Positions 34-59,660 of a stretch of 64,000 nt of DNA are shown piece by piece. This DNA comes from an uncultured Thermoanaerobaculia bacterium (GTDB lineage Bacteria > Acidobacteriota > Thermoanaerobaculia > Thermoanaerobaculales > Sulfomarinibacteraceae), in NCBI GenBank assembly GCA_964641415.1, contig CAZXMW010000005.1, forward strand, positions 14,760 to 78,759, read 5' to 3'. The notes under the pieces are model-generated. The model had not been told where the DNA came from and searched no databases. It saw only the letters and a program-made list of their open reading frames with translations. Numbering within the stretch: position 1 is the first letter of the stretch; each line of letters starts with the position of its first letter. A program made the position numbers and the translations under genes.

Positions 34-125
34 CCATCGCACCATCGCAAGTCGAAGCCATCGCAGCCGTCGCACCGTCGCAGTTCATCGCAGTGGTGCG
101 GAGGAGCGGAGTCATCGCAGTTCGT
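34..125. repeat. Array of about 7 degenerate catcgca/cgtcgca motifs
   Basis: ccatcgca, ccatcgca, ccatcgca, ccgtcgca, ccgtcgca, tcatcgca and tcatcgca can be read directly. The complementary motif tgcgatg recurs at 590-610 and at 16355-16362. Confidence 0.8.
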
Positions 126-146
126 TGGTGAGGGTAAGGTGTTGAG

Positions 147-5191: not shown

Positions 5192-5422
5192 ATGAATATC
5201 GGCGTCCTGATCATCATCGTCGTGACCGTCGCTCTTGTTCTGCTGGTCGTGCTGCCCCGGTTCCGCGGTTTCGCAAGCAGCGAGAAGACCACGGTCGAGC
5301 GCCGCTCGGGTCGTGACCGGCGGCACCGGAACATCACCGTCGCGAACGACCGTCGCAAGCGACCGCGACGTGCCGAGGACGCCGCCAGGGCCTTCGTCCA
5401 GAAGATGTCCGACCCGAGTTAG
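5192..5422 (+). CDS. Hypothetical small membrane protein with a basic tail
   Basis: One N-terminal TM helix (IGVLIIIVVTVALVLLVVL) is followed by an Arg-rich segment. An AT-rich putative promoter lies upstream. There is no clear RBS. Confidence 0.35.
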   Translation: MNIGVLIIIVVTVALVLLVVLPRFRGFASSEKTTVERRSGRDRRHRNITVANDRRKRPRRAEDAARAFVQKMSDPS

Positions 5423-5642
5423 TTCCCATTCGGAAACCCCGATGGGGACTGCGCAGTTCTCGATTCGGGAACGAGTTGAGCGATTCTGCAGGTCGGGGGT
5501 TGGACAGCCGGTGTTCGAAGCCTCGAACCGGACCTTCATGCCGGTCGCGCTCGATGTCGAGATCGCTCGTGACGACCGGGGTCGACGCGACCCTCGCCGT
5601 TCGGTCGCGGCCGTCAGGACGGGCGTCACGTACACTCGTGCC

Positions 5643-6257
5643 ATGGCAGATGCCGATCGCACGATCACCATCGATGGCGTGACCCTCGCGCTGCAGGTGA
5701 CCCGAAAGCAGGTCAAGAACATCAACGCCCGGTTGGTCGGAGGAGAGCTTCGGATCAGCGCGCCGCCCGCGGTGCGGGATACCGAGCTCGAGCCGATCGT
5801 CCGCGAGCTCGGACGGCGGTTGCTCCGGCGCGAACGCGCGCACAACGTCAACGACGCGCACGACGCGCTGGCATTGGCGCAGCGCGTGGCGCTCCGGTTC
5901 GCCGATCCGCCGCGAATCGAGGCGGCGCGTTTCTCCACCAACCAGCGGGCGCGGTGGGGGAGCTACAGCGTCCGAACCCGGACCGTGCACCTCAATGCAG
6001 CTCTGCGCACCATGCCGCCATGGGTGCTCGAGGCGGTCGTCGCGCACGAGCTCGCGCACTCGTTTCACCCCGATCACTCGCCGGCGTTCTGGGCCCTGCT
6101 GCGCGGGATCTGCCCCGAGACCGACCGGGCACGCGCTTTCCTGGAGGGCGTCAGCTGGCTCGCCGGAAGCTGGAATCGGCTGCCGCCGCCGGAGCGCACC
6201 CAGCTCGGAGCATGGACCGAAGGTGGAGCAGACACGGCCGTGAACCCTGCGGGTTAG
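5643..6257 (+). CDS. YgjP-like (DUF45/M48 family) zinc metallopeptidase
   Basis: It contains the HEXXH motif HELAH followed by HSPAFW. The family-typical N-terminus reads ...VTRKQVKNINARL.... Confidence 0.7.
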   Translation: MADADRTITIDGVTLALQVTRKQVKNINARLVGGELRISAPPAVRDTELEPIVRELGRRLLRRERAHNVNDAHDALALAQRVALRFADPPRIEAARFSTNQRARWGSYSVRTRTVHLNAALRTMPPWVLEAVVAHELAHSFHPDHSPAFWALLRGICPETDRARAFLEGVSWLAGSWNRLPPPERTQLGAWTEGGADTAVNPAG

Positions 6258-6266
6258 AGTGGTCGG

Positions 6267-9200: not shown

Positions 9201-10829
9201 ATCCCGCTGGTCGAGGGGCAGCCGCCGCGCCTCGAGTTCCACCACCGGATGCGGCTCGACCGGGGCCGCGACGGGGGACGGCTCGAGTACTCCACCAACG
9301 GCGGGCTCGACTGGCACGACATCCGTTCCGGGGACGGCCAGACCGTGCCCGACGGCCCCGGACGCTTCCTCGCCGGCGGTTACACCGACACGATCGCGGC
9401 CCCCGCCAACCCGCTTTATCTCGCGGACGCCTGGTCGGGCGACACCGCGGGCTGGGTCGATACGGTTGTCGATCTCTCCGACCTCGCCGGCCTCCGGATC
9501 CTGCTGCGCTGGCGCTTCGCCGGCGACGACACGCCGGGGGGCGACCGGGGCTGGTGGGTTGACGGTATCCGGCTGGTCGTCGATCGGGAGTGCCAGGACT
9601 GCATCCCGCCCGACCCGCCGCCGTGGCTGTGGTCGACCGCCACCGGGGACGGTGTCGAGCTGAGCTGGCCCGAGGCCCCCGGGGCTGCGACCTATCGGCT
9701 CGATCGCCGGAGCCGGTTGTCGAGCCCCGGCGAGGAGATCGCGAGGGTCGCGGCGCCGCAGACCTTCCACCTCGACGGCGAGGTCTCGGGTGGAACGACC
9801 TACTACTACACCGTCAGAGCCGACGACGGCTGCCTGTCGGACGAGTCGATCATGACGACGGTGACCGCCGTCGGACCGTGCACCCGGGCGCCGGCCTTCT
9901 GGGGTCTCGACGAGGTGGTCGACCGCCGCGAGCCAGGCTGCGCCCTCGACCTCGCCTGGCGGCCGGCCGAGCCGGGCTGTGCCGGCGCCGAGGTCCGGTA
10001 CCGGGTGTACCGGTCGCCGACCGCCGGCTTCGAGCCCGGGCCTGAGACCCTGATTGACGACGGCGTGATCGCAACCCGCGTTCGCGATCTCGGAATCGGC
10101 GACCGCGAGCGCGTCCACTACCGCGTCCGCGCGGTCGACGCCGTCAGCGGCGCCGAAGACGCCAACCCGGTGCTCCAGACCGGTTCGACCACCGGACCCG
10201 ACGAGCTTCTGTTCGAGGACTCGGTGGAGGACGGTGCGGACGGCTGGTGGACCGGCGTCGGGTCGGGCGCCGACAGCGGCACCGAGCCGTGGCGGGTGGT
10301 CGACGACCGCGCCTTCGACGGGACGCACTCCTGGTTCTGCGCCAACGAGCCGCGGGTCAAGGATCAGGTGGTCGGCCTGATCGAGCCGGTGGAGATCACC
10401 GGGTCGACGACGGTGCTCGCCTTGTCCCACCTGTTCGATCTGGAGCCGTTCTGGGACGGCGGCCGGCTCGAGTACTCGACCGATGGCGGCGCCACGTGGC
10501 AGGACATCCTGAGGGGCGGCGGCGGCGCCGTCGGCGACAACCCGAACCGGTTTCTTCGCGGCGGATACAGCGGGTTCGTCAGCTCCGGGACCGGCCATCC
10601 GTTCGGCGGTGAGCCGGCGTGGACCGGCTTCGTCGACGGCTGGTTCGAGACCGTTGTCGATCTCGGCGACTTCGCCGGGCTCACCGTCGCCCTGCGCTGG
10701 CGGCTCGGCTGCGACCGGTCGGACGCCCGGACCGGTTGGTGGCTCGACAACGTCCGGCTGATCCGGACCGTGGCGTGTGAGCCGATCGCGCCACCGGCTC
10801 CGCGAGCCGGTGGCGAACGCCGACCCTGA
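6267..10829 (+). CDS. Secreted S8 (subtilisin-like) serine protease with P-domain-like region, FN3-like domains and a duplicated C-terminal supermodule
   Basis: The catalytic triad context is HNDSGVD (Asp), HGTHTAGS (His) and TGTSQACA (Ser). There is an N-terminal signal peptide and a GTG start. Two roughly 390-aa repeats each end in GGRLEYST.GG..W.DI ... GWW.D..RL. Confidence 0.85.
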   Translation: MATNVRFPSVANRLVSVLVVLSVAGGSGAVRAAQPVLAECDRIGTTAAVIQLVHDYGDLCLVRVVGEPPIATAHRVHPVAPVGAVGFRHWSGTTVDAGLLPDGAPIVLGLIGPLDRRWRAELEAAGIEILAPAHPHALVIRGDPAAAARVLGLETSEGLPVVVGAAVLPAEARVHRSLLPLATGWDAADRPRLRAIGWDGRPIPVETKDAAPGGLARLLDERPDIGYVEPVLGIEPHNNLAGRSELLGAEEPWSLGFVGDGVTVLHNDSGVDLEHPGLAGAIVAAAGRMEYFDTAHGTHTAGSIVGRPATPAPVNASGCGDLVPGLETASGMAPGAALVTNNIFNGGFGEIPEMMAWGAGRGAQLSNNSWGLLGQTGPEVGYSAAAAEVDAAVRDADPATSGDQPMTVFFSAGNTGPDPGTVTSPGTAKNAITVGAVQNARCGAWVPAQQPGPDPEVVVTSSGRGPSQLRIKPDLVAPGSDVMSLQSQDGYAIQLWDLGWTGPLLALNTGTSQACALATGAGALLHEILWRHGRSGLRPSPALLKAALIATADRPGDAVDSDRGWGRIALSPAPTTALPIVAFDQGETAQLATGDRWSTEIAVRSADRILELAMVWTDPPGEADADHPLVNDLDLLVTMPSGAVLRGNVFDGGWSRPDPGALRDGDNNVEVVRVEQPEVGSWTVEVVGVEVAVPPVGLDGQDFAVAAVGDVGACVDQPLPPAAVQAAPAGDNAIAVTWSPVSGATRYEVARAIRPGGRPYQVVATIGGGVTSVVDAGLSGGTTYYYVVRAEGECWSADSYEVSAAATGPCTTVPLFAGIASVTGVPSASCSLELAWSPATATCPAPVSYDVYHGSTPDFEPSETNRIVEGLDAETWLDRGLEPDREAFYLVRASHAGSGDDDGNTVRIGGRPVGPDEAYLDPITAEFLHTWNRLPGSAVDPGSEPWRRTEDDAWDGLRSWFVADEPGVKDQVLELREPIPLVEGQPPRLEFHHRMRLDRGRDGGRLEYSTNGGLDWHDIRSGDGQTVPDGPGRFLAGGYTDTIAAPANPLYLADAWSGDTAGWVDTVVDLSDLAGLRILLRWRFAGDDTPGGDRGWWVDGIRLVVDRECQDCIPPDPPPWLWSTATGDGVELSWPEAPGAATYRLDRRSRLSSPGEEIARVAAPQTFHLDGEVSGGTTYYYTVRADDGCLSDESIMTTVTAVGPCTRAPAFWGLDEVVDRREPGCALDLAWRPAEPGCAGAEVRYRVYRSPTAGFEPGPETLIDDGVIATRVRDLGIGDRERVHYRVRAVDAVSGAEDANPVLQTGSTTGPDELLFEDSVEDGADGWWTGVGSGADSGTEPWRVVDDRAFDGTHSWFCANEPRVKDQVVGLIEPVEITGSTTVLALSHLFDLEPFWDGGRLEYSTDGGATWQDILRGGGGAVGDNPNRFLRGGYSGFVSSGTGHPFGGEPAWTGFVDGWFETVVDLGDFAGLTVALRWRLGCDRSDARTGWWLDNVRLIRTVACEPIAPPAPRAGGERRP

Positions 10830-41519: not shown

Positions 41520-41978
41520 ATGCGATGGCTGTTGACGGTATGCGCGATGCTCCTTTTGACCCCTGCCGTGGCGGTCGCCCAGGGTGATCCGAAGGACGTC
41601 CGCTACGAGGGCGCCATCACCCATGGTGAGGCCGCCCAGCTCATGCTCAAGATCGCCGCCGGTTACGCCGAGGCGACGCCCGATCCCCAGTCCGCGCACG
41701 AGCGGCTCCAGAGCTGGGGCATCGTGCCGGTGACCTGGGCTTGGGACGACCCGCTGCTGCACGGCGAGCTGGCTCAGATGCTCGAGCACCTCGGAATCGA
41801 ATACCTGCCCGCCAAGGCCGACTCGCCGGTATCCGGGGTTTTTCTCGAGGCGCTGCTGTGGCGCGAGGTGACCAAGCTCCGCGACTACCACGCAAAACGT
41901 CTCGGCCACGGATTCTCGGCCAACCACGTGCTCGACGCTGGCGTCGACCGGGCGGTCAGTCCATCGGACTTCAACTGA
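41520..41978 (+). CDS. Hypothetical secreted protein
   Basis: The signal peptide is MRWLLTVCAMLLLTPAVAVAQG. It has its own promoter and RBS. Confidence 0.55.
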   Translation: MRWLLTVCAMLLLTPAVAVAQGDPKDVRYEGAITHGEAAQLMLKIAAGYAEATPDPQSAHERLQSWGIVPVTWAWDDPLLHGELAQMLEHLGIEYLPAKADSPVSGVFLEALLWREVTKLRDYHAKRLGHGFSANHVLDAGVDRAVSPSDFN

Positions 41979-42899: not shown

Positions 42900-42995
42900 A
42901 CGGCCGTCGTCGGATCGCCGGACGCACGAATCGTCCTTGATGCGACGGCCGAAGCCTCGTAGTATTGTTGCATACGAGTATGTGAGGAGGACCGC

Positions 42996-43460
42996 GTGAG
43001 CGAAGGTGGTGATGGGCCGAGCAAGATCAAGGTTGTGGATCGGCGACGTTTCGACGACAGCGGAGAGCCGAGGCCGGATCGTCCGGCGCCCGAGCCCAAA
43101 CCGAAACCGGAACGCCAGGATCCGCTGACCGGATCGGTCGGGGATGGGCGGACGGCAGCGCCAGACAGTGCCGGCCCGGCCCCCGGGGCTTCGGCAACAG
43201 TGCCCGGTGAAGGGTCGACTGCCGATGCGGCGGGCTCGCCGTTGTTTCTGGAGCTTGTCGCGGCGCTCGCTCAACAGGCGGAGATCCTCATCACCGGCGG
43301 CCAGGGCCTCCCCGCTCAGCCTGCCGAGGCACAACGGGTCATCGACTATCTCGGTGTTCTGGAGAGCAAGACCCGTGGCAATCTTTCGTCCGAAGAGAAG
43401 CAGATTCTGTCCAATGTAATTTTCCAGCTCCGGACACTCTACGTTCAACAGGCAAGATGA
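42996..43460 (+). CDS. DUF1844 domain protein
   Basis: The C-terminal block reads FLELVAALAQQAEILI...AQRVIDYLGVLESKTRGNLSSEEKQILSNVIFQLRTLY. The start is GTG. Confidence 0.7.
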   Translation: MSEGGDGPSKIKVVDRRRFDDSGEPRPDRPAPEPKPKPERQDPLTGSVGDGRTAAPDSAGPAPGASATVPGEGSTADAAGSPLFLELVAALAQQAEILITGGQGLPAQPAEAQRVIDYLGVLESKTRGNLSSEEKQILSNVIFQLRTLYVQQAR

Positions 43461-45262
43461 AACCGCTGGCCCGCGTGTCGATCCTGGTGTGCGCCGCGTT
43501 CGTGGCGGCACCGGTGAGCGCCACGGTTGACGAGGCATGGCTCGGGGTCCAGGAGGTTCTGTCGGCGCCGGAGGATCGGGCGCTCGATGAGCCGGTCGAC
43601 GACCTGGTTCGAGCGGCGGAAGAGATCGATGTCCGACGCCTGACGCCCCAAGCCTCGGCGATGGTCGCCTGGTCGATCAGCCACCCCGAGCAAGGCGACG
43701 CGGCGATGCGAACGGCGATTCGCTTTGACTCGCAGCTGCCGGCGCCCCACTTCCTGCTGTCGAGTCGCAGCTGGCAACGTGGAGCCTATCTCGAAAGCGC
43801 ATCGCACTACGTGCGCGGGTGGTTGGCCGCGTTTCGCCACGAGGTGACGCGTCGTCACCTGGTGATGTCCCTGGGGATTTGGATCATCCTCGGCGCGGTG
43901 GCGGCCGGGACCGCGGCCATGATCGTGATGACGCTGTACACGCTCTCCCGAACTACATTCGACGCACTGTCGGTCGGCGACATGATCTTCGCGCGTGCCA
44001 ACGCCATCGTCTTCGGCGCAGTGCTCGTGCTGCTGCCGGTGTTCGCCGGGCTCGGACCGGCATGGCTGGTGGTCTATCTCTTCGTCGGTGGCTGGATCTA
44101 CCTGGCCCCCGGTGCGCGAGGCCTCGCGGTCGGGCTGTGCTGCTTCCTCGCTGTGGTTCCGGCATTGCTCGAGACCTGGCAGCGCTCGCTGCTCCGGGTG
44201 CCGCCGGTGACCGAACGGGTTTCGGTCATGCTCGACGAGAGGCAGCTCAACCCGTCAGCTCTTCGCGAGTTTCTCGACCTCAAGGGGGAGTTCGACGGCG
44301 ATCCGCTCTTCCACCTGATTCTCGGGGAGCTGCTGCGCATGCACTCGGCCGTCGAATCCGCCAAGGTCGAGTTCCAGACCGCGGCCGTCGAATCCGCTCA
44401 CGACTCTCGCCCGTACGTGTTCCTCGGCAACATGGCGCTGGAGGACGGCAATGTCCAGCTCGCCATCCAGTACTACGATTCGGCGATCGATCTTGACGAT
44501 CGGACGGCGCTGGCGTACCACAACCTGTCCTCCGCGTACGATCTCATTCGTCGTTTCCAGCAGGGCGATGCGGCCCGGGCGCGGGCCCGCGACCTCGCGG
44601 GCGGCCGCTCGGCAACACTCGGCGTGCGCGGGCGCGATCCGAGAGTCCGTTATCCCGGGGTGACTTCTGACGACGTCGACGAGTTCGTGGTGGGTCTGAC
44701 CGACGAGGGTCGACTCCAGGTCGGTTACAGCGCCGCCTCGTTGCGCTCGGCGGTGCAGCTGTTGAGCCCGACGTCGATGCTGTTCTGGCTCGGTGCGGTG
44801 ATGGGTGGAGCGCTGCTGGCGGCTCGGTCGAGGTGGTTTCCGGCCGCCCGACAGTGCTCGAAGTGCGGCAAGGTGTATCGACTCGAGGACGAACCGGGCG
44901 AGAGCCCACTGTACTGCCGCCAGTGCGTGTCGGTGTTCCTGCAGCGTGACCTGGTGCCCATCGAGCAGCAGACGGCGAAGCTCGCCCAGGTTCGCCGCTG
45001 GGATCGTTGGGTCGACGTCTGCCGCCGCGCGGCCTCGGTGCTCGCTCCAGGGTCGGCCATGATCGTGGGCGACCGGGTCGGTCTCGGTCTCGCGGTCGGA
45101 CTGGCTTCGTGGACCGCGCTGGTCGGTCTCGTCGTGTGGACGCCGAGATTTCTCGAGACCATCGAGCCGACCGTGCCGACTCAGCCGGTGATTGCCGTCC
45201 TCGCGGTCGTGCTCGCTGCGAGCTGGCTGCGCTCCGTGCTCGGGTCGTGGCGGAGGAGTTGA
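43457..45262 (+). CDS. Polytopic membrane protein with TPR-like repeats and a C-terminal zinc ribbon
   Basis: There is a signal peptide and several TM helices. TPR-like segments include AIQYYDSAIDLDDRTALAYHNLSSAY. The zinc ribbon is CSKCG...CRQC. An ATGA overlap links it to the DUF1844 gene. Confidence 0.65.
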   Translation: MKPLARVSILVCAAFVAAPVSATVDEAWLGVQEVLSAPEDRALDEPVDDLVRAAEEIDVRRLTPQASAMVAWSISHPEQGDAAMRTAIRFDSQLPAPHFLLSSRSWQRGAYLESASHYVRGWLAAFRHEVTRRHLVMSLGIWIILGAVAAGTAAMIVMTLYTLSRTTFDALSVGDMIFARANAIVFGAVLVLLPVFAGLGPAWLVVYLFVGGWIYLAPGARGLAVGLCCFLAVVPALLETWQRSLLRVPPVTERVSVMLDERQLNPSALREFLDLKGEFDGDPLFHLILGELLRMHSAVESAKVEFQTAAVESAHDSRPYVFLGNMALEDGNVQLAIQYYDSAIDLDDRTALAYHNLSSAYDLIRRFQQGDAARARARDLAGGRSATLGVRGRDPRVRYPGVTSDDVDEFVVGLTDEGRLQVGYSAASLRSAVQLLSPTSMLFWLGAVMGGALLAARSRWFPAARQCSKCGKVYRLEDEPGESPLYCRQCVSVFLQRDLVPIEQQTAKLAQVRRWDRWVDVCRRAASVLAPGSAMIVGDRVGLGLAVGLASWTALVGLVVWTPRFLETIEPTVPTQPVIAVLAVVLAASWLRSVLGSWRRS

Positions 45263-45263
45263 C

Positions 45264-46571
45264 GTGGCGTTGGAAGGCACTCTCAGGGACTTCTCCTTCG
45301 CTGACATTCTGCAGCTGATCTCGCTGCAGAGGAAGACCGGGGTCCTGACTCTCAAGTCGGATGACAACCTCACCACGATTTCATTCGTCGACGGCAACAT
45401 CGTCGGCGCCTCGACGCTCAACCAACACACCGAGGATCTCATCGGCCTGATCCTGCTCAAGCGCGGCGAGGTCGAGGCTGCGGCTCTCGACGAGGCGCTT
45501 CGGTGGCAGCAGGAAACACTCCAACGTCTGGGTCGGATCTTCATCGACCACGGCGTTGTCACGGTCGAGACGGTTCGCTCTGCCCTGCAACAGCAGATTC
45601 TCCAGATCGTCTACCGCGTCTTTCGCTGGAATGACGGCGATTACCACTTTTCTCAGGAATCGGACATCGACTACGATCGCGAGCTCACCGAGCCGATGGC
45701 TGCCGATCACATCATCATGGAAGGCGCCAGAATGACCGACGAGTGGCCGTTCATCGAGCAACGGCTGCCGGACCGCAACGTGGTTCTCGTTCAGGTCGAT
45801 CCGAGGCGCGAGCTCGAGATGGTCGAACCGGCGTCCGACGATTTTGACAATTTGGGCTTCAGCTTTACCGATACGCCACAGGAGGAGCCGCGGCACGTCG
45901 ACGGGCCCGGCGAAGGACAGGTCACTCCCGATCAACTGGCGGTGTACCGACTGGTCAACGGCAGGGATGACGTTCATGAGGTCATCCTGGCGAGCCCGCT
46001 CATCGAGTTCGAGACCTGCAAGGCCCTGGCGGAGCTCATCGAGAGCGGCCTGATTCGAGAACGCAGCAATCAGGAAACGATCCAAGCGGAGCTTCTGACC
46101 GAAGCCGGGTCGACGAGCCGTCGTCGGCGGATCAACATCAGCGCCTTGCCCTGGCTCGCGATTCCGTTTCTGGTTCTTCTCGGTTTCGCCTTGACGGTCA
46201 TGCCGCGCAACCCGTTCAACCCGACCTTCACGGTGCGGCAGGATTTCTGGCAGCGCTACGTGGTGCAGAGTCAGTCCTGGTTGAAGATGGACTGGCTCGC
46301 GCGGAATGCCGAGGCCGACTTCTTTCTCCGGGGCCTCTATCCCGCCGGGCTGGACACACTTTCGGCCTCGCGTCTCGGCCGCTCGATGGCCGAGGACCCT
46401 TGGCAGCGACCCTATCGGATGGCCATTCGGGGGCACAAGCTCATGTTCACCGGTTCGGACAGTCAGGGCCAGCCGGTGCCGATGCTGATTTTGAGCCGCA
46501 GCCTGGCCTGGGAGGGCGAGGTGCAGGATGCTGTGGACCGAACCGGGCCGGGTCTGATCCTCCTCCCGTAG
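45264..46571 (+). CDS. DUF4388 (PatA-N-like) domain protein with a TM segment
   Basis: The N-terminus reads LEGTLRDFSFADILQLISLQRKTGVLTLKSD...ISFVDGNIVGA. A GTG start lies 1 nt after the upstream stop, with a ggaggag RBS. Confidence 0.7.
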   Translation: MALEGTLRDFSFADILQLISLQRKTGVLTLKSDDNLTTISFVDGNIVGASTLNQHTEDLIGLILLKRGEVEAAALDEALRWQQETLQRLGRIFIDHGVVTVETVRSALQQQILQIVYRVFRWNDGDYHFSQESDIDYDRELTEPMAADHIIMEGARMTDEWPFIEQRLPDRNVVLVQVDPRRELEMVEPASDDFDNLGFSFTDTPQEEPRHVDGPGEGQVTPDQLAVYRLVNGRDDVHEVILASPLIEFETCKALAELIESGLIRERSNQETIQAELLTEAGSTSRRRRINISALPWLAIPFLVLLGFALTVMPRNPFNPTFTVRQDFWQRYVVQSQSWLKMDWLARNAEADFFLRGLYPAGLDTLSASRLGRSMAEDPWQRPYRMAIRGHKLMFTGSDSQGQPVPMLILSRSLAWEGEVQDAVDRTGPGLILLP

Positions 46572-46752: not shown

Positions 46753-46786
46753 CAGTCAAGAATATACTTGACAAAGAAACACTCAG
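46753..46786. promoter_or_regulatory. HAIR-like HspR operator half-sites overlapping the dnaK promoter
   Basis: CTTGACA-N7-ACTCAGG (46766-46786) compares with the HAIR consensus CTTGAGT-N7-ACTCAAG. There is also an upstream GTCAAG-N6-CTTGAC inverted repeat. Confidence 0.55.
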
Positions 46787-46795
46787 GTTTTATGA
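46767..46795 (+). promoter_or_regulatory. Sigma70-type promoter of dnaK
   Basis: The elements are TTGACA-N17-TATGAT, about 37 nt upstream of ATG 46832, with a gaggagg RBS. Confidence 0.65.
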
Positions 46796-46831
46796 TGTGT
46801 CCGGATCGCAGAATTTGAGGAGGACATTAGC

Positions 46832-48757
46832 ATGTCTCGTGTCATCGGAATCGACCTCGGAACGACCAACTCGGTCGTCGCCGTCATGGAAGGCGGGAAG
46901 CCGGCCGTCATCGCAAATCAAGAGGGAAACCGCACCACCGCATCGGTGGTCGCCTTCAATTCGTCCGGAGAGCGTCTTGTCGGCCAGGTGGCCAAACGCC
47001 AGGCCGTGACCAACCCCGAAAACACAGTCTTTTCGGTCAAACGTTTCATGGGGCGTAGGTTCGACGAGGTAGCCGGGGAGATCAAGACCGTTCCCTATAT
47101 GGTGGTCAAGGGCGAGAACGATACCGCCCGGATCGAGATCCTCGACAGGGTCTACTCGCCGCCTGAAATTTCGGCGATGGTCCTGCAGAAGCTCAAGGCG
47201 GCTGCCGAGGACCATCTGGGAGGGCCGGTCGACAAGGCGGTGATTACCGTCCCGGCCTACTTCAACGATGCCCAGCGGAAGGCAACCAAGGACGCCGGCC
47301 AGATCGCCGGGCTTGAGGTGCTGCGGCTGGTCAACGAGCCGACCGCTGCGGCCCTCGCCTACGGGCTCGACCGGAAGGAAGACGAAACGATTGCCGTGTT
47401 CGACTTCGGCGGCGGCACCTTCGACATCTCGATTCTCGAGGTCGGCGCCGGCGTTGTCGAGGTCAAGTCGACCAACGGCGACACCCATCTCGGAGGCGAC
47501 GACATCGACCAGCTGATCATCGACTGGTTGGTGGAGGAGTTCAAGAAGGACCAGGGCGTCGACCTGAGCCAGGACCGGATGGCGCTGCAGCGGCTCAAAG
47601 AAGCCGGAGAAAAGGCCAAGATGGAGCTCAGCGCGACCATGGAAACCGACATCAATCTGCCGTTCATCACCGCCGACGCCTCGGGGCCGAAGCATCTGGC
47701 GCTGAAGCTCACCCGGTCGAAGTTCGAGCAGATGATCGGCCCGCTGGTCGACCGGACGCTCGAGCCCTGTCGGCAGGCGCTCAAGGACGCCGGCATCGAG
47801 GCCAAGGACGTCGACGAGGTGGTTCTGGTCGGTGGTTCGACCCGGATCCCGATGGTCCAGAAGGCGGTGACGGACTTTTTCGGCAAGGAACCTCACCGCG
47901 GCGTCAACCCCGACGAGGTGGTCGCCATCGGAGCGGCGGTCCAGGCTGGCGTGCTCGCCGGTGAGGTCAAGGACGTGCTCCTGCTCGACGTCACCCCGCT
48001 TTCGCTCGGCGTCGAGACCCTGGGCGGCGTGACCGACGTCGTGATTCCCCGCAATACGACGATTCCGACCCGCAAGAGCAAGGTCTACTCGACGGCGGAC
48101 GACAACCAGAATCAGGTCGAGATTCACGTTCTCCAGGGCGAGCGCACCATGGCTCCGGACAACCGGACCCTCGGTCGGTTTCACCTGATGGGCATTCCGG
48201 CGGCGCCCCGCGGGGTGCCGCAGATCGAGGTCACGTTCGACATCGACGCCAACGGCATTCTCCACGTCTCGGCCAAGGACCGCGGAACCGGCCAGGAGCA
48301 GAAGATCCAGATCACCAGCTCGTCGGGTCTCAACGACGACGAGATCGACCGCATGGTGAACGAGGCCAAGACTCACGCCACTGACGACGAGGCCAAGCGC
48401 AAGCAGATCGAAACCCGAAACAAGCTCGACGGGCTCGTATACTCGACCGAGAAGCTGCTCGCCGAGAACCGCGACAAGCTGCCCGAGGGCGAGACCAGGA
48501 ACATCGACGAGGTCATCGCCGACGCCAAGAAGGCACTCGAGGAGGGCGACGAGAGCCGGATGGAGCAGGTGTACGAACAGCTGACCCAGGCGAGCCACCA
48601 GATCGCCGCGGCGCTCTATCAGACCGCCACCGGCGACGGCGGACCGGCCGGCGACGGCGCGTCGGACTCCGGCGCCGCGGCGGGCGCGGCGGGCGAGGAC
48701 GACGAGGTCATTGATGCCGAGTACGTCGACGTCGAGCCGGAAGAAGAAAAATCATGA
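46832..48757 (+). CDS. dnaK: Molecular chaperone DnaK (Hsp70)
   Basis: The sequence reads [33 protein letters not shown] and a C-terminal Gly/Ala/acidic tail. Confidence 0.97.
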
Positions 48758-48794: not shown

Positions 48795-48921
48795 CCGGGC
48801 CCTCCTCCCGTCGTGACGACACGGCGGGAAAGGGGCAATGGTAGAGTCGAGACACAGGCACATCGAGAGTCGGTGCCGGCAAGCGGTCGTCATCGACCGG
48901 TCGTGGGTGTTTGGAGGCCTC

Positions 48922-49296
48922 GTGAAGTCCAAGCCGCGGTACCGCATGATCTCCTGGGTCGCGGAGAAGTACAACGTACACCCGCAGACGCTGCGTTTGT
49001 GGGAGCGCGAGGGTCTGATCCAGCCGAGCCGTTCCGAAGGCAACACGCGCCTGTATGACGAGCAGGCATGTCTCCAGCTCGAGACGATTCTGACTCTGAC
49101 CCGCGACCTGGGCGTCAATCTCGCCGGAGTCGAGATCATTCTCAATCTGAAGTCCCAGATCGGTCAGCTTCAGGCCGAGAACCGGATGCTCAAGAAGCTC
49201 GTCCGGCAGGCTTTGCGAAGCAAGCGGGAGGTGCCGCGCTATCACGCCCTGGTCAAGTTCGAGACCGGCTCGATCCAGGTCGTGGATGACGAATGA
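48922..49296 (+). CDS. hspR: MerR-family heat-shock repressor HspR
   Basis: The HTH reads YRMISWVAEKYNVHPQTLRLWEREGLIQPSRSEGNTRLY and a coiled-coil tail follows. It lies directly downstream of dnaK. A ggagg RBS precedes GTG 48922. Confidence 0.75.
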   Translation: MKSKPRYRMISWVAEKYNVHPQTLRLWEREGLIQPSRSEGNTRLYDEQACLQLETILTLTRDLGVNLAGVEIILNLKSQIGQLQAENRMLKKLVRQALRSKREVPRYHALVKFETGSIQVVDDE

Positions 49297-50162
49297 CCGC
49301 CTCCACCGGGCGACCGCGCAACGCCGAATCCGCTACCCTGCGCCGATACCTGGAAGACATCTCCAGATATCCGATGCTGAGCCACGACGAGGAGGTCGAG
49401 CTCGCTCGTCGTGTCAAGGCCGGCGATCACGAGGCCGTTCGGCGGCTTGTCGAGGCCAACCTGCGCTTCGTGGTTGCCTACGCCAAGCGCTACCGGACAC
49501 CCAACGTGCCGTTTCTCGATCTCATCCACGAGGGGAACCTCGGCCTGATCCAGGCGGCCAAGAAGTACGACCCGTTCGGCGAGGGCCACGACGTCAAGTT
49601 CATCACCTATGCCGTTTGGTGGATCCGCCAGGCGATCCTGCACGCGCTGGCGGAGCATGCAGGATCGTTCCGCCTGCCCCAGAAGCAGGCGAACAACCTG
49701 TACCGGCTCGAAAGGGTCCGGTCACTGCTCCAGGAGCGACATGGACGGGCGCCGACCGACGTCGAGCTCGCCGACGAGCTCGATCTGTCGGTGGACGACG
49801 TGCAGGTGCTGACCCAGGCGTCCCAGTCTTCGCTATCCCTCAACGAGCCGGTCGACGTCGACGGCAATTCCGAACTCGGCGATCTTCTCGAGCAGACGAC
49901 GCTCCCGGACACCGACGACCGGCTCGTTCAGGAGTCGTTCCGGGTCGCGTTGGCAGATGCCCTCGGCGAGCTGCCCGACCGGGAGCGACGCGTGCTCGAG
50001 CTGCGGTTCGGTCTCCTGGACGACCAACCCAAAACCCTGAGGGAGATCGGCGAGATCCTCGATTTGTCGCGGGAGCGCGTGCGGCAGATCGAGAGCCGCG
50101 CCCTCAACCGACTGCGATGCTCACACACCACCCAGTCCCTCTCCGGATACCTCAGTGCATGA
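49293..50162 (+). CDS. Sigma-70 family RNA polymerase sigma factor (regions 2, 3 and 4 present; group 2/3-like)
   Basis: Region 2 reads NLRFVVAYAKRY...DLIHEGNLGLIQAAKKYD...FITYAVWWIRQAI. Region 4 reads LREIGEILDLSRERVRQIESRAL. An ATGA overlap links it to hspR. Confidence 0.85.
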   Translation: MTASTGRPRNAESATLRRYLEDISRYPMLSHDEEVELARRVKAGDHEAVRRLVEANLRFVVAYAKRYRTPNVPFLDLIHEGNLGLIQAAKKYDPFGEGHDVKFITYAVWWIRQAILHALAEHAGSFRLPQKQANNLYRLERVRSLLQERHGRAPTDVELADELDLSVDDVQVLTQASQSSLSLNEPVDVDGNSELGDLLEQTTLPDTDDRLVQESFRVALADALGELPDRERRVLELRFGLLDDQPKTLREIGEILDLSRERVRQIESRALNRLRCSHTTQSLSGYLSA

Positions 50163-50210: not shown

Positions 50211-50765
50211 TCAGATTTCATCGCCATCCTCGGCATCGTCGCGGGCCTCTTCGTGCCGGGCAGCCGCCTTGTTCCGCACGACGACCCAGGTTCCGGCGAG
50301 GAGGTCGTGGAGAGCGCGTCTGTCTTCGCGAAGCACGATCAGGAGATGGCCCATTCCCGCCGTCACCGAGCTCACCGAGTACGCGGCGAGCCGGAGGAAA
50401 GCGCGGGACAGGCCGATCGGCCACTTCCCTCGATGATCGACGACGACAAGGCCGAACATCCACTTGCCGATGGTCGTCCCGACGAGACCCCAGCCGACTG
50501 CGAAGTAACACCACCACAGCGCGATCCACAGACCGATGATGCCGGCCACGTGGGCAATCCAAGCGGGGTCGGACAGCGAGTCGACGGCCAGCGTCGGGTC
50601 TCGGATCAGCGGTTGCCAGTCGATGGCCCGAGCGGCGGGGTAGGCGAGGAGAGCGCAGATACCGCAGTACACGACCATGTCGACGAGGGTTGCCGGCAGT
50701 CGCCGAAACAGGCCCGCCGGGAGCAGCGCGCCGGGTGGACGGCCGTTTGCGCGACCGTCGATCAC
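50211..50765 (-). CDS. RDD family membrane protein
   Basis: The sequence reads RRLPATLVDMVVY and has 3 TM helices. The GTG start overlaps the stop of the upstream gene (GTGA). Confidence 0.6.
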   Translation of the reverse strand: MIDGRANGRPPGALLPAGLFRRLPATLVDMVVYCGICALLAYPAARAIDWQPLIRDPTLAVDSLSDPAWIAHVAGIIGLWIALWWCYFAVGWGLVGTTIGKWMFGLVVVDHRGKWPIGLSRAFLRLAAYSVSSVTAGMGHLLIVLREDRRALHDLLAGTWVVVRNKAAARHEEARDDAEDGDEI

Positions 50766-52426
50766 AGCGGTGTCAGACCTCCGTTTTTCTGGTGATCCAG
50801 CCAAAGGCCGGCGTAGGCGTAGAGGAAGCGGAACCGAGACCTGTAGATCTGTTCGAGCTGCTCGGTTTCGGCCCGATACAGCATGTCGTCGATGAACCAC
50901 AGGAACCTGCGCTCGATCTCGCGGGCCCGGTCGAGGCTGCTCGCCGACGTCTCGAGCATCTCGAACAGGCGGTCTGGTTTGGAGCTCGAAGCCAGCCGTT
51001 CGATCTCTCGCCGTTCCTCCTCCATCTTGACCCTGAGGGCCGCGCTGGTGAGGAAAAACCGCTGCAGCTGACGGTCCTCGCTGTCATCAGACTCCTGCTG
51101 CTCGGCCATCTGACGGTAGGTTTCGACCTCCCACGCTTCGAGGCCGAGGCTCCTGATCTCCGGCGCCTCGACGACCTGTTCGGGCGTCCGGTCCCAGATC
51201 ACGAGTTCGAGCGCGAACATGATCTTGTGAAGAACCTCGTTGAGCAGCGGATCGCTGGGAAGGAGGTCGGTGATGGAAGTGATGGGCGGCTCGCCGGGCG
51301 ACCTGCCCCCGGCTGGTTCCAGCTCACGTTCGGGCCGAATCGGTGCGGGCTCGATCTCGGCGACCTCGTCCACGAGCTCGAGGGGTTTGGACGCTCTGGC
51401 GGCGACGCTCCGGTCGGTCGGGACGCCGGTTGCGAGCACATCCGCGGCGGTCGACTCGAAGTGCGCCAAAACATCGTGCATGGACTGGCGGAGCTCGAGA
51501 ATGTCCGAGCGCTTGACATTGTGCTGCCGTCGCGCATCCTCGAACCGGACCCGTGACTGCCGAAAGACGTCGATCTTGTCCTTGATCTCACGGGTCGCGA
51601 GCCCGGGATTCTTGGTCAGGTACCGCTCGATGTCGAAGATCCGGTTGGTGCCCTCGAGGAGCTGCCGTTCCTCGATGTCGAAGAGTTCGCGAAAGCGGTT
51701 TCGGGCGGCGATGTTGGTCGCCGTGATCTCGACCAGCAGCGGCGGGTGCAGCATGGCTCGCCCGATTCTGGTCTTGAAGCCGCGCAGACGGTCGTAGACC
51801 CTCGATTGGACCAGGGTGTCGAAGTCTCCGATTCGCTCGAACTCGTCGTGGAGCTCCTTGACGGCTTCGATCAGCGGTTTCTCCTCCTCGGGCGGCAGCA
51901 CGGCGAGCCCGGCGAACGCCGCCAGACGCTCGAAGGTCGAGAGCAGCTCGGGTCGCGCTCTCTGCATCAGCTCATCGTTGTCGGCCGGGGTCTCGGCGAG
52001 CCGGGTCAGCAGAATGTCGAGCTTGTCGAAGGTCTCCTGACTCGGGTGCTTCGCCATCAGGTAGAACTTGACCAGCGCAAACAGGATTTTTTCGTCCTGC
52101 CGCTTGAGATGGTCGAAAAAACGCCGCAGATACGATGGCGGAAACGTCCGTTCCAGGCGGGTCAGCTCGCCATGAATCCGTTCCAGCTCGCGCTCGATGG
52201 TCTCGAACTCGATGAGCACCAGCTTGTCGACGTGATCACCGATTCGGGGCACGATCCCCTGAATTCGCTGATACAGCGCCTGAAAATCATACTCGTACGG
52301 TATTGCTCCATCGCCGCGGTGCTTGTAGACCCCGGCCAGAAACTGGAAGAAGGTCCACAGTGAACGGAATCGATCCGAAAGCCCGGTGTAGCGCTCACTG
52401 ATCCCGTGGGCCCCAGCAGTTTTCAT
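50762..52426 (-). CDS. Conserved-looking hypothetical 554-aa helical protein
   Basis: It is a long ORF with GC-typical codon usage and starts MKTAGAHG. No motif was recognised. It is translationally coupled to the RDD gene. Confidence 0.6.
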   Translation of the reverse strand: MKTAGAHGISERYTGLSDRFRSLWTFFQFLAGVYKHRGDGAIPYEYDFQALYQRIQGIVPRIGDHVDKLVLIEFETIERELERIHGELTRLERTFPPSYLRRFFDHLKRQDEKILFALVKFYLMAKHPSQETFDKLDILLTRLAETPADNDELMQRARPELLSTFERLAAFAGLAVLPPEEEKPLIEAVKELHDEFERIGDFDTLVQSRVYDRLRGFKTRIGRAMLHPPLLVEITATNIAARNRFRELFDIEERQLLEGTNRIFDIERYLTKNPGLATREIKDKIDVFRQSRVRFEDARRQHNVKRSDILELRQSMHDVLAHFESTAADVLATGVPTDRSVAARASKPLELVDEVAEIEPAPIRPERELEPAGGRSPGEPPITSITDLLPSDPLLNEVLHKIMFALELVIWDRTPEQVVEAPEIRSLGLEAWEVETYRQMAEQQESDDSEDRQLQRFFLTSAALRVKMEEERREIERLASSSKPDRLFEMLETSASSLDRAREIERRFLWFIDDMLYRAETEQLEQIYRSRFRFLYAYAGLWLDHQKNGGLTPL

Positions 52427-52455
52427 GTTGAGTCTACGATACACTGCGCAGCGGC

Positions 52456-52998
52456 GTGACACAACGAGAAGAGATCTTCATGCTGGGACCGGTGGTGGTG
52501 CCGAGAGCCGACATCGAGACCATGATCGACCGCCTCTCGCGCGAGATCGAGGCGGATCTGAAAGGCCGGTCGCCGGTCTTCATCGGGGTGCTCAAGGGCT
52601 GCGTCTTTTTCTTCACGGACCTCGTGTCCCGCCTGAGTCAATCGGTGGAGATGGACTTCATCCAGGTTTCAAGCTATGGCGCGAGCACTACCTCATCGGG
52701 ATCCGTGGTCCTGGTCAAGGACATCACCGTCAACGTCCGCGACCGCGACGTCTATCTCGTCGAGGACATCGTCGACACCGGGTCGACCCTGACCGATGTC
52801 ATCAGTCTGCTCGAGGCACGACACCCGCGGTCGATCCAGGTGGTGTCGCTGCTGTCCAAGCCGGCTCGGCGTCAGGTCGAGGTCGACATCGCGTTTCTCG
52901 GCACCGAGATCGAAGATCGTTTCGTCATCGGTTACGGTCTCGACTACGACGAGCGCTATCGTAATCTGCCGGAGATCCACGAACTTGTGTCCGAGTGA
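52456..52998 (+). CDS. hpt: Hypoxanthine phosphoribosyltransferase
   Basis: The PRPP motif is VYLVEDIVDTGSTL. The sequence also reads GVLKGCVFFFTDL and FVIGYGLDYDERYRNLPEI. The start is either GTG 52456 or ATG 52480. Confidence 0.9.
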   Translation: MTQREEIFMLGPVVVPRADIETMIDRLSREIEADLKGRSPVFIGVLKGCVFFFTDLVSRLSQSVEMDFIQVSSYGASTTSSGSVVLVKDITVNVRDRDVYLVEDIVDTGSTLTDVISLLEARHPRSIQVVSLLSKPARRQVEVDIAFLGTEIEDRFVIGYGLDYDERYRNLPEIHELVSE

Positions 52999-57209: not shown

Positions 57210-59660
57210 ATGATTCGCAAACTCGAGTCCGAAGAACTGGCGTGGTCCTGCCCGGATGAGTGGCTCAGCTGGCAGGCGTCGAACGAAATCGAGCCGGCGT
57301 CCACGATCGTCGGTCAGGATCGCGCGGTCGAGGCCATCGCGTTCGGCCTCGCCATGCGAGGAATCGGCTACAACGTTTTCGTCACCGGCCTGTCCGGAAC
57401 CGGTCGACTGACCACCATCAAGCAGTTCCTCGAGCACATCGACGGCGATCCGACGATTCCGGACGACGTCTGCTTCGTTCACAACTTCCGCAACCCCGAG
57501 GAACCGAATGCGCTGTTCATCGAGGCCGGCGCCGGCCGTCGACTCCGGGACGGAATGGAAAACCTGATCGAAGAGCTCGCCGAGAACCTGCCCAAAATCC
57601 TCAACGACAAGGAGATTCGGGCGAGATTGGATCGAGCGGTCAAGAGCTTCCAGCGGCAGGAACGGGAGCTGGTGGAGAGCTTCGACGAGGAGGTCAAGAA
57701 GGCCGGCTTCTCGATGGTCCAGATCCAGTCCGGACCGATCACTCGTCCCGAGATCATGCTCCTGGTCGAAGGCGACCCGGTGGCGGTCGATGACCTCGAG
57801 TCTCTGGTGGAGGACGGCAAGATCGAGGCCGACCGGGTGAAGACCCTGACCGAGAAGCACCGTGAGCTGTCGGGAAAGCTGCGCGAGATCTTCGAGCAGG
57901 TCGGCGAGCTGCGGCGCCAGGCACAGCAGGAGATCGAGCGGGTCCGGGCCGAGCTCCTGCACCCGACCTTCTCCGAGGCGGTGAGGCGGGTTTTGGTCGA
58001 GGTCGGCGACGAGCGCGCCCAGCCCTACCTCGAGGCGGTGCAACAGGATCTCGAAGAGAATGTCCACGTGTTCGTGGTCGATGACGACGAACAGAAACGA
58101 GACCGTTTCATCCGTTGGCGCGTCAACCTTGCAGTCGACAACTCGGAGCTCGACGGGCGGCCGGTCGTCATGGAGACCGAGCCGACCTACACCAATTTAT
58201 TCGGCACCATCGAGCGCTCGTTGCTGCCGTCGGGAGAGGGCACGACCTCGTTCATGCGGATCCGGGCTGGCTCGATGCTGCGGGCGAACGGCGGATACCT
58301 GGTGGTCAACGCCGAAGACGTGCTCATGGAACCTCGGGTTTGGCCTGGTCTGAAGCGCGCATTGCGCTACCGGCGGGTACAGATCCAGGCCTGGGAGAGC
58401 GTGGTCTTCGGCGCGGCGGTCCTCAAGCCGGAGCCGGTTCCGCTCGACGTCAAGGTGGTGGTCATCGGCGACCGCGCGATCTACGATCTCCTGTACCGGC
58501 GGGATGCTGATTTTCCCAAGATCTTCAAGGTGCTGGCCGACTTCGAGCGCGTCATCGCGAAGTCGAAGGACCACGCTGCGGACATTCTCTCAGTCCTCCA
58601 GAAGGTGGCGACCGAGGAGGACCTGCTGCCTTTCCATCGGAGCGGGATGGCGGCCGTCTTGGAACATGCGGTGTATCTCGGAAGCTGGCGCCGGCGATTC
58701 TCGAGCCGGTTTTCGGACCTCGCCGACATTCAACGCGAGGCGGACTACCATGCTCGCCTGGACAATGCCGAGGCGATCGAACGCCGGCATGTCATGGCGG
58801 CCAAGCAGGCGCGAAACCGCCGCCATGGACTGTCCGAGGACCGGACCCACGACCTCATCGCAGACGGTGTGGTGCACGTTGCGACCGACGGCGAGACCGT
58901 CGGCCAGGTCAACGGTCTCGCGGTGTACGACCTCGGTCACCACCGGTTCGGCAAGCCGTCGCGGATCACGGCCAGGGTCGGTTTGGGTCGGGAAGGGGTC
59001 ATCAACATCGAGCGGCAGGCGGGCCTGTCCGGGCCGACCCACGACAAGGGTGTGAGCATTCTGACCGGCTTCCTGCGCGGCACCTTTGCTCGAAGGGTCC
59101 CGCTCACCATGGCGTGCTCGGTGACCTTCGAGCAGAGCTACGGCGGCATCGACGGCGATTCGGCGTCGTCGACCGAGGTCTACGCCATTCTGTCGGCGCT
59201 GTCGGGTCTGCCGTTGAAGCAGGGCATCGCGGTGACCGGTTCCGTCGATCAGTACGGACGGGTCCAGGCCATCGGAGGGGTCAACGAGAAGATCGAGGGG
59301 TTCTTCCGAGTCTGCTCGAGCCGAGGGTTGACCGGCGCCGAGGGGGTGATGATCCCGTCGAGCAACGTCGGAGATCTCCACCTCGCCGACGAGGTCACCG
59401 AGGCGGTCGAGGCGGGCCGGTTCAACATCTGGTCGGTTGACAGCGTGGAGGACGGGGTCGAGCTGCTGGCCGGTGTTCCGGCGGGGCAGTGGTCGGACGA
59501 CGAAGGCTGGTCCGAGGACGGAGTGTACGGCCGTTGCGAAGCCAGGCTGGAGGAGATGGCGAGGCTGCTGCGTCGGTCAATCAAGGACCCGGAAACGAGC
59601 GGGACCGGCGATGACGACGGAAGTTCTCGGGGCGGTCGCGACGAAGAGACTGATGCCTGA
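57210..59660 (+). CDS. Lon-like (S16) protease with degenerate AAA-like domain (LonC/COG1067-like)
   Basis: The Lon protease domain reads GIDGDSASSTEVYAILSAL (Ser) and GGVNEKIEGF (Lys). The P-loop-like segment TGLSGTGRLTT lacks the canonical Lys. Confidence 0.75.
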   Translation: MIRKLESEELAWSCPDEWLSWQASNEIEPASTIVGQDRAVEAIAFGLAMRGIGYNVFVTGLSGTGRLTTIKQFLEHIDGDPTIPDDVCFVHNFRNPEEPNALFIEAGAGRRLRDGMENLIEELAENLPKILNDKEIRARLDRAVKSFQRQERELVESFDEEVKKAGFSMVQIQSGPITRPEIMLLVEGDPVAVDDLESLVEDGKIEADRVKTLTEKHRELSGKLREIFEQVGELRRQAQQEIERVRAELLHPTFSEAVRRVLVEVGDERAQPYLEAVQQDLEENVHVFVVDDDEQKRDRFIRWRVNLAVDNSELDGRPVVMETEPTYTNLFGTIERSLLPSGEGTTSFMRIRAGSMLRANGGYLVVNAEDVLMEPRVWPGLKRALRYRRVQIQAWESVVFGAAVLKPEPVPLDVKVVVIGDRAIYDLLYRRDADFPKIFKVLADFERVIAKSKDHAADILSVLQKVATEEDLLPFHRSGMAAVLEHAVYLGSWRRRFSSRFSDLADIQREADYHARLDNAEAIERRHVMAAKQARNRRHGLSEDRTHDLIADGVVHVATDGETVGQVNGLAVYDLGHHRFGKPSRITARVGLGREGVINIERQAGLSGPTHDKGVSILTGFLRGTFARRVPLTMACSVTFEQSYGGIDGDSASSTEVYAILSALSGLPLKQGIAVTGSVDQYGRVQAIGGVNEKIEGFFRVCSSRGLTGAEGVMIPSSNVGDLHLADEVTEAVEAGRFNIWSVDSVEDGVELLAGVPAGQWSDDEGWSEDGVYGRCEARLEEMARLLRRSIKDPETSGTGDDDGSSRGGRDEETDA

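Follow-up and report, generated by a model that had tools for sequence, protein, structure and literature searches.

A conserved membrane gene pair with a candidate MshEN-type c-di-GMP motif in Acidobacteriota and Nitrospirota

Receptors are the least-known part of cyclic di-GMP (c-di-GMP) signaling, and the only widespread receptor domains are PilZ, MshEN and, as recently recognized, ComFB (PMC12448109). MshEN is defined by a pair of 24-residue motifs with a spacer of 5 residues between them (PMC5013675). In the GSPII-B domain of PilF, Lys or Leu at the first motif position is compatible with very high affinity, and the consensus has been extended to (R/K/L)LG... to reflect this (PMC11731258). 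A second relevant family is PATAN, some members of which carry an insertion known as the alpha-clip; this is the same element as the repeats with which type II secretion and type IV pilus ATPases begin (bioRxiv 10.1101/2021.06.11.447907). Cyanobacterial PATAN domains act as output modules that bind PilB1 and PilC, and in Synechocystis the contacts are with the PilB1 N-terminus and the PilC N-terminal domain (bioRxiv 10.1101/2021.06.11.447907). Here we analyze three adjacent genes in a 64,000-nucleotide stretch of contig CAZXMW010000005.1 (hereafter the window), from an uncultured Thermoanaerobaculia bacterium of the phylum Acidobacteriota. The genes, which we call g1, g2 and g3, encode a DUF1844 protein, a seven-transmembrane (TM) protein with tetratricopeptide-repeat (TPR) and zinc-ribbon regions, and a PATAN protein. 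We found that g2 and g3 form an obligate, widely conserved pair and that the alpha-clip of g3 contains a candidate MshEN-type motif. We tentatively favor a model, at slightly less than even confidence, in which g2 and g3 are the core of a c-di-GMP-responsive inner-membrane complex that includes DUF1844 and possibly acts on type IV filament machinery.

The case for this pair begins with gene order. In about 170 loci, anchored either on g2 or on g3, g3 lies directly 3' of g2 wherever room allows. The tight packing is repeated in more than 150 independent loci, which rules out a chance adjacency of g1, g2 and g3. Searching a g2 family profile against 1.84 billion representative proteins gave 177 relatives below 1e-30, many of which are full-length (600–800 residues) and 17–26% identical to g2, with the same architecture and the same four invariant cysteines. 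With a seven-sequence subset of distant relatives, about 20% identical to g2, as the anchor, a scan of species-representative genomes gave 80 loci, which come without exception from Thermoanaerobaculia/Acidobacteriota metagenome-assembled genomes (MAGs). When the open reading frames (ORFs) of these loci were scanned with hidden Markov models, the genes resembling DUF1844, g2 and g3 proved to lie in that order and packed together wherever the contig was long enough. The order DUF1844–g2–PatA_N is also present in a Candidatus Polarisedimenticolia MAG and four further divergent loci (L083, L084, L085, L086, L087), as well as in L090, and in L001, whose g2 is 42% identical, the whole neighborhood is the same as in the window. 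The only interrupted pair seen is that of L084, where an inserted gene for a 771-residue peptidase S8 (5351–7666) separates the g2-like gene from PatA_N.

The reciprocal scan, anchored on g3-type proteins, covered 80 metagenome loci ranging in GC content from 28 to 74%. Of these, 71 extend 300 nt or more upstream of g3, and in all 71 a g2-like gene ends shortly before g3, mostly with a gap of 0–15 nt. A DUF1844-like gene precedes g2 in 35 of the 37 loci with room for one, both exceptions being Nitrospirota, and a second tally beside this one places DUF1844 in about 75 of 80 loci. The gene is missing from all four Nitrospirota loci with room to check, whereas outside that phylum only a few loci lack it. 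The g2–PatA_N pair occurs without a DUF1844 gene in the P0341 locus, L088 and L089, the last of which is judged to be Nitrospirota from the names on its CTP synthase and DnaB clusters. The unit is an obligate g2–g3 pair with a frequent but dispensable DUF1844 companion. An earlier note on this DNA, made from the sequence alone, had proposed a triad; the order it described is indeed widely kept, but its membership is not fixed, as DUF1844 can be absent whereas the pair is not. On conservation beyond close relatives, which that note had named as a test of its proposal, the answer is clear-cut: the order is kept between g2 relatives that are about 20% identical and in both Acidobacteriota and Nitrospirota. 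These two phyla, the former represented by Thermoanaerobaculia and Polarisedimenticolia, are the only ones in which the unit is documented. A profile search with distant g2 relatives returned mainly the Polarisedimenticolia clade and generic TPR proteins, and the deeper lineages were traced singly; one "Verrucomicrobiae" label from that search was not trusted and was not used. Unbiased clustering of flanking ORFs proved too noisy in high-GC genomes and was dropped.

Besides the conserved gene order, the comparisons establish the domain homologies and the conservation of the motif in g3. The N-terminal region of g3 matches PF14332 (DUF4388/PatA_N, the family named in the earlier note) at 106.5 bits against a cutoff of 25, and the first 30 residues are invariant in close orthologues. 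The match spreads 158 residues over 121 model positions, with an alpha-clip insertion that consists of two repeated helix pairs. It is this insertion, already known from PATAN domains, that holds the MshEN-type motif: residues 59–82 and 88–111 form two 24-residue units around a 5-residue spacer (residues 83–87), a frame that is the same in 84 orthologues. The NCBIfam model for the MshE-related c-di-GMP motif (NF053729) matches residues 60–111 of the window protein marginally, at 40.4 bits against a cutoff of 38. Distant orthologues carry the motif at the same position in 10 of 10 cases; nine of them exceed the cutoff (42.7–64.9 bits) and one scores 35.5. A profile of g3 orthologues matches Thermus PilF, which binds c-di-GMP (E 1.3e-7), and Vibrio MshE (5htl; E 2.9e-4) over exactly the motif stretch. 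Gly3, Leu6, Leu17, Leu21 and Gln24 of motif I are invariant in 84 of 84 orthologues, and their equivalents in motif II are invariant or conservatively substituted. The window protein matches 18 of the 22 strict consensus positions (in each motif, 1, 2, 3, 6, 7, 10, 11, 12, 17, 21 and 24). Motif I begins with Leu rather than Arg, which fits the extended consensus, and three deviations are conservative (Ile at position 2, Phe at position 6 and Val at position 17). We predict from these comparisons that the motif binds one c-di-GMP. The statement in the earlier note that no member of the operon has an assigned function was thus too strong, as g3 has a recognizable MshEN-type motif.

The C-terminal half of g3 has relatives in type II secretion. 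The TM helix and periplasmic tail that had been noted previously can be refined: the helix is single, and the tail, of about 120 residues, is at the level of the family a GspG-pseudopilin-like domain. Pfam T2SSG (PF08334) is matched by 14 of 16 diverse g3 C-terminal regions, with a best E value of 1.9e-6; among single sequences, one distant orthologue gave a faint match and 5 of 18 close orthologues gave weak ones. When a profile of g3 tails was compared with the PDB, the seven best matches were all GspG/EpsG pseudopilins (E 1.3e-5 to 7e-3). The tail signature (Y/F)P..L..L...DPWGxxYxY is clear in the family, and Nitrospirota orthologues keep the calcium loop, S.G.DG..GT.DDI. Two simpler identities for g3 were rejected. 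It is not a true pseudopilin: its hydrophobic helix lies behind about 290 cytoplasmic residues, and there is no prepilin leader and no G|F/M-xxxE. Because the helix is not N-terminal and the leader is absent, g3 is expected to be neither processed nor polymerised. Nor is it a PatA-type response regulator, since no REC match was found in Pfam or NCBIfam and its C-terminal half consists of the TM helix and the GspG-like domain.

These observations are consistent with a model for a complex whose formation, ligand binding, topology and target we infer from the conserved features. In this model, c-di-GMP would bind the alpha-clip of the g3 PATAN domain and shift its engagement of cytoplasmic partners, which might be the zinc-ribbon region of g2, DUF1844 or an external target. 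Through the membrane, the state of the PATAN domain would be linked to an assembly in the periplasm, made of the pseudopilin-like domain and the TPR domains of g2. The external target would most likely be the inner-membrane platform of either a type IV pilus or a type II secretion system, both of them type IV filament machines, with g3 serving as a membrane-tethered, non-polymerisable pilin mimic or adaptor. A type IV filament target is our best guess because all three modules of g3 derive from or bind that machinery; it is an uncertain one because genomic linkage to type IV filament genes is absent.

Several observations weigh against this model. There are no pilus, type II secretion or GGDEF/EAL genes within the window, and among the approximately 170 loci a pilus/secretion T2SSE ATPase lies near the pair in one, L088. 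The window protein is the weakest member of its family, with a motif only 2.4 bits above the NF053729 cutoff, and Glu at the hydrophobic position 11 of motif I is its one non-conservative deviation. Its tail alone gives no T2SSG match, and its GspG calcium loop is degenerate. The alpha-clip is common to many PATAN domains, and we found no test of its c-di-GMP binding in the literature searched. Structure prediction for g3 was of little help: an AlphaFold2 (AF2) model built from 18 close orthologues was poor (pLDDT 48.8), with only the C-terminal part, a long helix and a 3-stranded sheet, at pLDDT 70–82. A Foldseek search of that model against the PDB gave nothing at E<1, with type IV pilins appearing only as non-significant matches. 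Neither the model nor the search was used as evidence.

The deviations of the window copy, at positions 2 and 11 of motif I and positions 6 and 17 of motif II, are what might be expected if the alpha-clip were a structural interaction element that does not bind c-di-GMP and the module, under a different kind of control, were a PATAN-type factor for polarity or assembly. There is precedent for such a change, in that XpsE and PilF GSPII-A lost binding despite MshEN-like similarity, and none of the many PATAN domains with an alpha-clip has been shown to bind c-di-GMP in the literature that we searched. However, this explanation sits poorly with the family as a whole, in which the key motif I positions are invariant in all 84 orthologues, the 5-residue spacer is exactly kept, and nearly all distant orthologues exceed the NCBIfam cutoff. 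We consider it improbable.

The genomic isolation of the module, for its part, would suit a self-contained complex for envelope signaling or scaffolding that is not connected with type IV filaments. Here, the periplasmic domains would sense or bind an envelope component, and PATAN, zinc ribbon and DUF1844 would relay the signal to some process in the cytoplasm, for example polarity, division or envelope biogenesis, with c-di-GMP as a modulator at most. The module stands alone amid surroundings that are highly varied between loci, the lone ATPase neighbor is as expected under this view, and the genes nearby frequently belong to the envelope (kds, pgsA, lnt, LPG synthase, GT4). A pseudopilin-like domain that is not N-terminal and cannot polymerise also fits such a role. 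Nonetheless, it is in type IV filament machinery that the nearest known relatives or partners of all three g3 modules are found, and a motif kept so strictly argues that c-di-GMP is central rather than peripheral. On balance, we regard a self-contained complex as somewhat unlikely.

The obligate partner, g2, lies outside any Pfam or NCBIfam family that would cover its whole architecture. Its length is constant at about 601 residues in relatives down to 40% identity, and both hydropathy and an AF2 model (pLDDT 88, pTM 0.77) indicate seven TM helices. We propose the following order: a signal peptide, periplasmic helical repeats, four TM helices, a periplasmic TPR domain, TM5, a cytoplasmic zinc ribbon and a C-terminal TM hairpin. 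This topology is predicted from the AF2 model, hydropathy and positive-inside residues, and the signal peptide is the reason for placing the N-terminal repeats (residues 24–127) in the periplasm. Trp28, in these repeats, is invariant throughout the family. TPR matches in the window protein itself are below threshold in Pfam (19.1 against 26.8), whereas 25 of 27 family members match Pfam TPR models, and in Foldseek about 130 residues of the model align to consensus TPRs with a TM-score of about 0.8 and a root-mean-square deviation of 2–3 Å. Foldseek and PDB profile searches gave generic TPR matches only, with no analogue of the whole protein. The four zinc-ribbon cysteines, Cys467, Cys470, Cys487 and Cys490 (CSKC467, CRQC487), are invariant even in relatives that are 17–26% identical, and a conserved helix, RDxVxIEQQTAKL, follows. 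The signal peptide, multiple TM helices, TPR-like repeats and CxxC...CxxC ribbon pointed out in the earlier note were all recovered, the repeats at the level of the family. As a side observation, distant g2 relatives have six cysteines in this region (CxKCGRxFCxRCK...YCxQC) and could form two zinc sites; in the clade of the window, the middle pair has been lost and four cysteines kept.

The companion protein, g1, matches Pfam DUF1844 (PF08899) at 45.1 bits against a cutoff of 27 (E 1.2e-11, model positions 33–76), and its orthologues in other loci carry precomputed PF08899 matches. By composition, the first 80 residues are rich in Pro, Gly, Ala and Asp. Both the family assignment and the long Pro/acidic N-terminus reported earlier therefore stand. 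In orthologues, an N-terminal motif, (I/L)KVxD(K/R)RxF, is joined by a low-complexity linker to a C-terminal helical domain about 70 residues long, which contains an (E)KTxGNL motif; in the alignment, Lys12, Val13, Asp15, Arg17 and Phe19 are nearly invariant. No relative was found when the DUF1844 profile was compared with the PDB, and in the literature searched the family is mentioned only as a table entry in a single paper, tabulated as "linked to D-Tyr-tRNA deacylase" in Deinococcus (PMC9425974). We suggest that g1 is a small cytoplasmic accessory subunit of the complex. Several lineages that are not related to one another (L083, L084, L085, L087, L088 and the P0341 locus) also have a gene for a MazG-family NTP pyrophosphohydrolase a short distance upstream of DUF1844 or g2, in most of them directly adjacent to the module and divergent from it. 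In L083 and L087 this gene is accompanied by accA, poly(A)-polymerase/CCA-type, xerD-like and dtd genes.

The organism has a high GC content (63–73%), and its named close homologues point to Thermoanaerobaculales/Thermoanaerobaculia. In the window, the three genes are arranged as a compact unit on the forward strand (Table 1). The ATGA overlap between g1 and g2 and the 1-nt gap between g2 and g3, which had been taken as signs of translational coupling, are both present in the sequence. The automatic ORF list starts g3 at a TTG codon at position 45192, giving a 459-residue ORF, which we rejected as an over-extension. The real start is the GTG at position 45264, because it follows the g2 stop codon by 1 nt, a GGAGGAG site sits upstream of it and all orthologues begin with MALEGTL. 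The putative promoter of g1 was not reported by a promoter scan because it matches only 8 of 12 positions. Taken together, the evidence agrees with the proposal of the earlier note that the locus encodes a membrane-associated signaling or assembly module.

Table 1. Coordinates of the g1–g3 genes, their predicted parts and the adjoining dnaK region (window positions)
Feature	Residues	Position	Strand	Remarks
Weak sigma-70-like sequence, TTGATG-17-TAGTAT		42937–42965	+	5' of g1; picked out by eye, a guess
Shine-Dalgarno sequence of g1, GAGGAGG		42985–42991	+	Read from the sequence; 5 nt 5' of g1
g1 (DUF1844)	1–154	42996–43460	+	154 aa; GTG start
g1, KIKVVDRRRF motif	10–19			
g1, Pro/Gly/Ala/Asp-rich linker				
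g1, conserved helical C-terminal domain	~82–154			
g2	1–601	43457–45262	+	601 aa; ATG overlaps g1 TGA as ATGA
g2, signal peptide	1–22	43457–43522	+	Hydropathy; basic n-region, ...PVSA/T end, A-x-A-like site; cleavage probable
g2, N-terminal helical-repeat domain	24–127	43526–43837	+	Six helices in AF2 model; predicted periplasmic
g2, first TM cluster	134–244	43856–44188	+	Four helices; conserved LP(L/V)FxxLGPxWL turn
g2, TPR domain	250–436	44204–44764	+	Foldseek, Pfam TPR in family; predicted periplasmic
g2, TM5	438–460			Before the zinc ribbon
g2, zinc ribbon C467xxC470...C487xxC490	467–490	44855–44926	+	Predicted cytoplasmic; putative metal binding
g2, C-terminal TM hairpin	541–598	45077–45250	+	Hydropathy and AF2 model
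g3	1–435	45264–46571	+	435 aa; GTG start 1 nt past g2 TGA; predicted bitopic, with cytoplasmic PATAN with alpha-clip, TM helix and periplasmic pseudopilin-like domain
g3, PATAN domain (DUF4388/PatA_N)	4–161	45273–45746	+	PF14332
g3, MshEN-type candidate c-di-GMP motif	59–111	45438–45596	+	LIGLILLKRGEVEAAALDEALRWQ - QETLQ - RLGRIFIDHGVVTVETVRSALQQQ
g3, TM helix	290–316	46131–46211	+	Hydropathy, alignment; preceded by RRRR, cytoplasmic side
g3, GspG-pseudopilin-like domain	~325–420	46236–46523	+	DPWQRPYR at residues 378–385; predicted periplasmic
Palindrome, GTCAAGAAT/ATACTTGAC		within 46755–46796		Overlapped by dnaK promoter
dnaK promoter, TTGACA-17-TATGAT		46768–46796	+	Near-consensus, 11/12 match
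dnaK		46832–48757	+	260 nt after g3
MerR/HspR-like gene		48838–49296		After dnaK
Sigma-70-family gene		49293–50162		After the MerR/HspR-like gene

The proximity of dnaK raises the question of whether the module belongs to the heat-shock response, for example as a membrane proteostasis factor or a DnaK adaptor. The linkage is not confined to the window but is repeated in several Acidobacteriota lineages: dnaK also lies 3' of g3 in L001, L083, L084, L085 and L087, and within 600 nt after g3 in 8 of 52 metagenome loci. Moreover, eukaryotic TPR domains bind Hsp70 tails, and Tom70/71 are among the Foldseek matches of g2. However, dnaK is not next to the triad in the other 44 of those 52 loci, and none was seen beside the triad in the 80 sister-clade loci or in L086 and L088–L090. 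The dnaK gene has a strong promoter of its own, overlapping a palindromic operator, and the TPR domains of g2 are predicted to be periplasmic, beyond the reach of DnaK. A chaperone-linked module is therefore very improbable and is the least likely of the explanations that we considered. We rejected membership of g1–g3 in the dnaK operon given the separate promoter and the missing linkage in most loci, and we read the adjacency as retained gene order rather than a shared operon. The placement of the triad immediately upstream of the dnaK operon, as in the earlier note, is thus correct for the window, but the two are separable. No grpE or dnaJ gene lies beside the dnaK, HspR-like and sigma-factor genes, and the palindrome resembles the HspR operator (HAIR), although the match is inexact.

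Some other genes near the module and in the window deserve mention. In L088 (456–5717, reverse strand), from a lineage with 48% GC, the g2–g3 pair adjoins a PilB/GspE-type ATPase gene (MshEN+T2SSE) and a gene for a second, 531-residue MshEN protein, and a gene for a TIG-domain protein occupies the usual position of DUF1844. In the window, a 152-residue ORF with a signal-peptide-like start and no Pfam or NCBIfam match (41520–41978, forward strand) lies between Poly_export and enoyl-CoA hydratase genes; L001 has no called gene at the corresponding place, and the ORF may be a lineage-specific insertion. A 566-residue protein with no Pfam or NCBIfam match (50762–52462, reverse strand) adjoins an RDD-family membrane protein gene (50211–50900, reverse strand), and L001 also has such an RDD-family pair, in which the partner has at least 544 residues and no Pfam match, making it a conserved unknown. 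The window further encodes a very large, 1520-residue subtilase (Peptidase_S8) with a C-terminal InhA-like MAM domain (6267–10829, forward strand) and an 816-residue LonC/LonB-like protease (LonC_helical, AAA_32, LonB lid, Lon_C; 57210–59660, forward strand). Upstream of the latter is a gene for a 561-residue protein with a CDP-alcohol phosphatidyltransferase domain only in its C-terminal third. Finally, a 479-residue protein without a Pfam match (3002–4441, reverse strand) is encoded directly downstream of a gene for an LpoB-like protein, that is, a peptidoglycan-synthase activator (4449–5051, reverse strand).

Each of the domain families discussed here was already known. In the literature searched, we found no description of an MshEN motif within a PATAN domain joined to a TM helix and a pseudopilin-like ectodomain, nor of the obligate pairing of such a protein with a seven-TM TPR/zinc-ribbon protein or of a link to DUF1844. 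Our study provides a first genomic partner for DUF1844, an obligate partner, g2, that falls outside any Pfam family, and, in g2–g3, an easily recognized, conserved receptor candidate in two environmental phyla that are abundant but have been little studied. A bolder version of the model, in which g2–g3, with or without DUF1844, constitutes an undescribed class of c-di-GMP receptor and g3 gates the type IV pilus or type II secretion platform from inside the membrane, is in our view unlikely, but its implications would be considerable. Acidobacteriota and Nitrospirota would possess a dedicated second-messenger switch for surface filaments, and both DUF1844 and the seven-TM TPR/zinc-ribbon family would acquire their first functions. 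If binding fails, the operon would still encode a well-defined, conserved membrane complex.

Comparison with described systems places g3 at the intersection of several families. The most general resemblance is to GspL and PilM–PilN, with which it shares a logic of one cytoplasmic domain able to engage an ATPase N-terminus, one TM helix and one periplasmic domain; this is an analogy of architecture alone, with no relation in sequence or fold detected. With GspG/EpsG, the major pseudopilins of type II secretion (PF08334/TIGR01710), the g3 family shares the globular signature, consisting of a helix, (Y/F)P..L..L, DPWGxxYxY and a beta-sheet, as well as the calcium loop in its Nitrospirota members, but it differs in having no prepilin leader, peptidase site or Glu5 and in lying outside gsp and pil operons. 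With the MshEN/GSPII receptors, including V. cholerae MshE, the GSPII-B domain of T. thermophilus PilF and E. coli NfrB, it has in common a pair of motifs, each of 24 residues and following the pattern (R/K/L)LGxx(LVI)(LVI)xxG(LVI)(LVI)xxxxLxxxLxxQ, and the 5-residue spacer. In those proteins the motif is N-terminal on a secretion ATPase or glycosyltransferase, whereas in g3 it lies inside a PATAN domain, lacks the MshEN_C subdomain, has Glu at position 11 of motif I in the window copy and belongs to a membrane-anchored protein with a periplasmic domain; binding by g3 is predicted. Lastly, g3 shares a PATAN domain with an alpha-clip with the PatA-type regulators (PixE, PixG and LsiR of Synechocystis and PatA of Anabaena) and with SgnC of M. 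xanthus. Unlike these, it has no REC domain, carries a TM helix and pseudopilin-like ectodomain, is always paired with a seven-TM TPR/zinc-ribbon protein and comes from Acidobacteriota and Nitrospirota, not from chemotaxis-like operons. The PATAN alpha-clip has long been noted but never explained, and if it is bound by c-di-GMP in g3, this would also bear on the PatA and PixE regulators of cyanobacteria.

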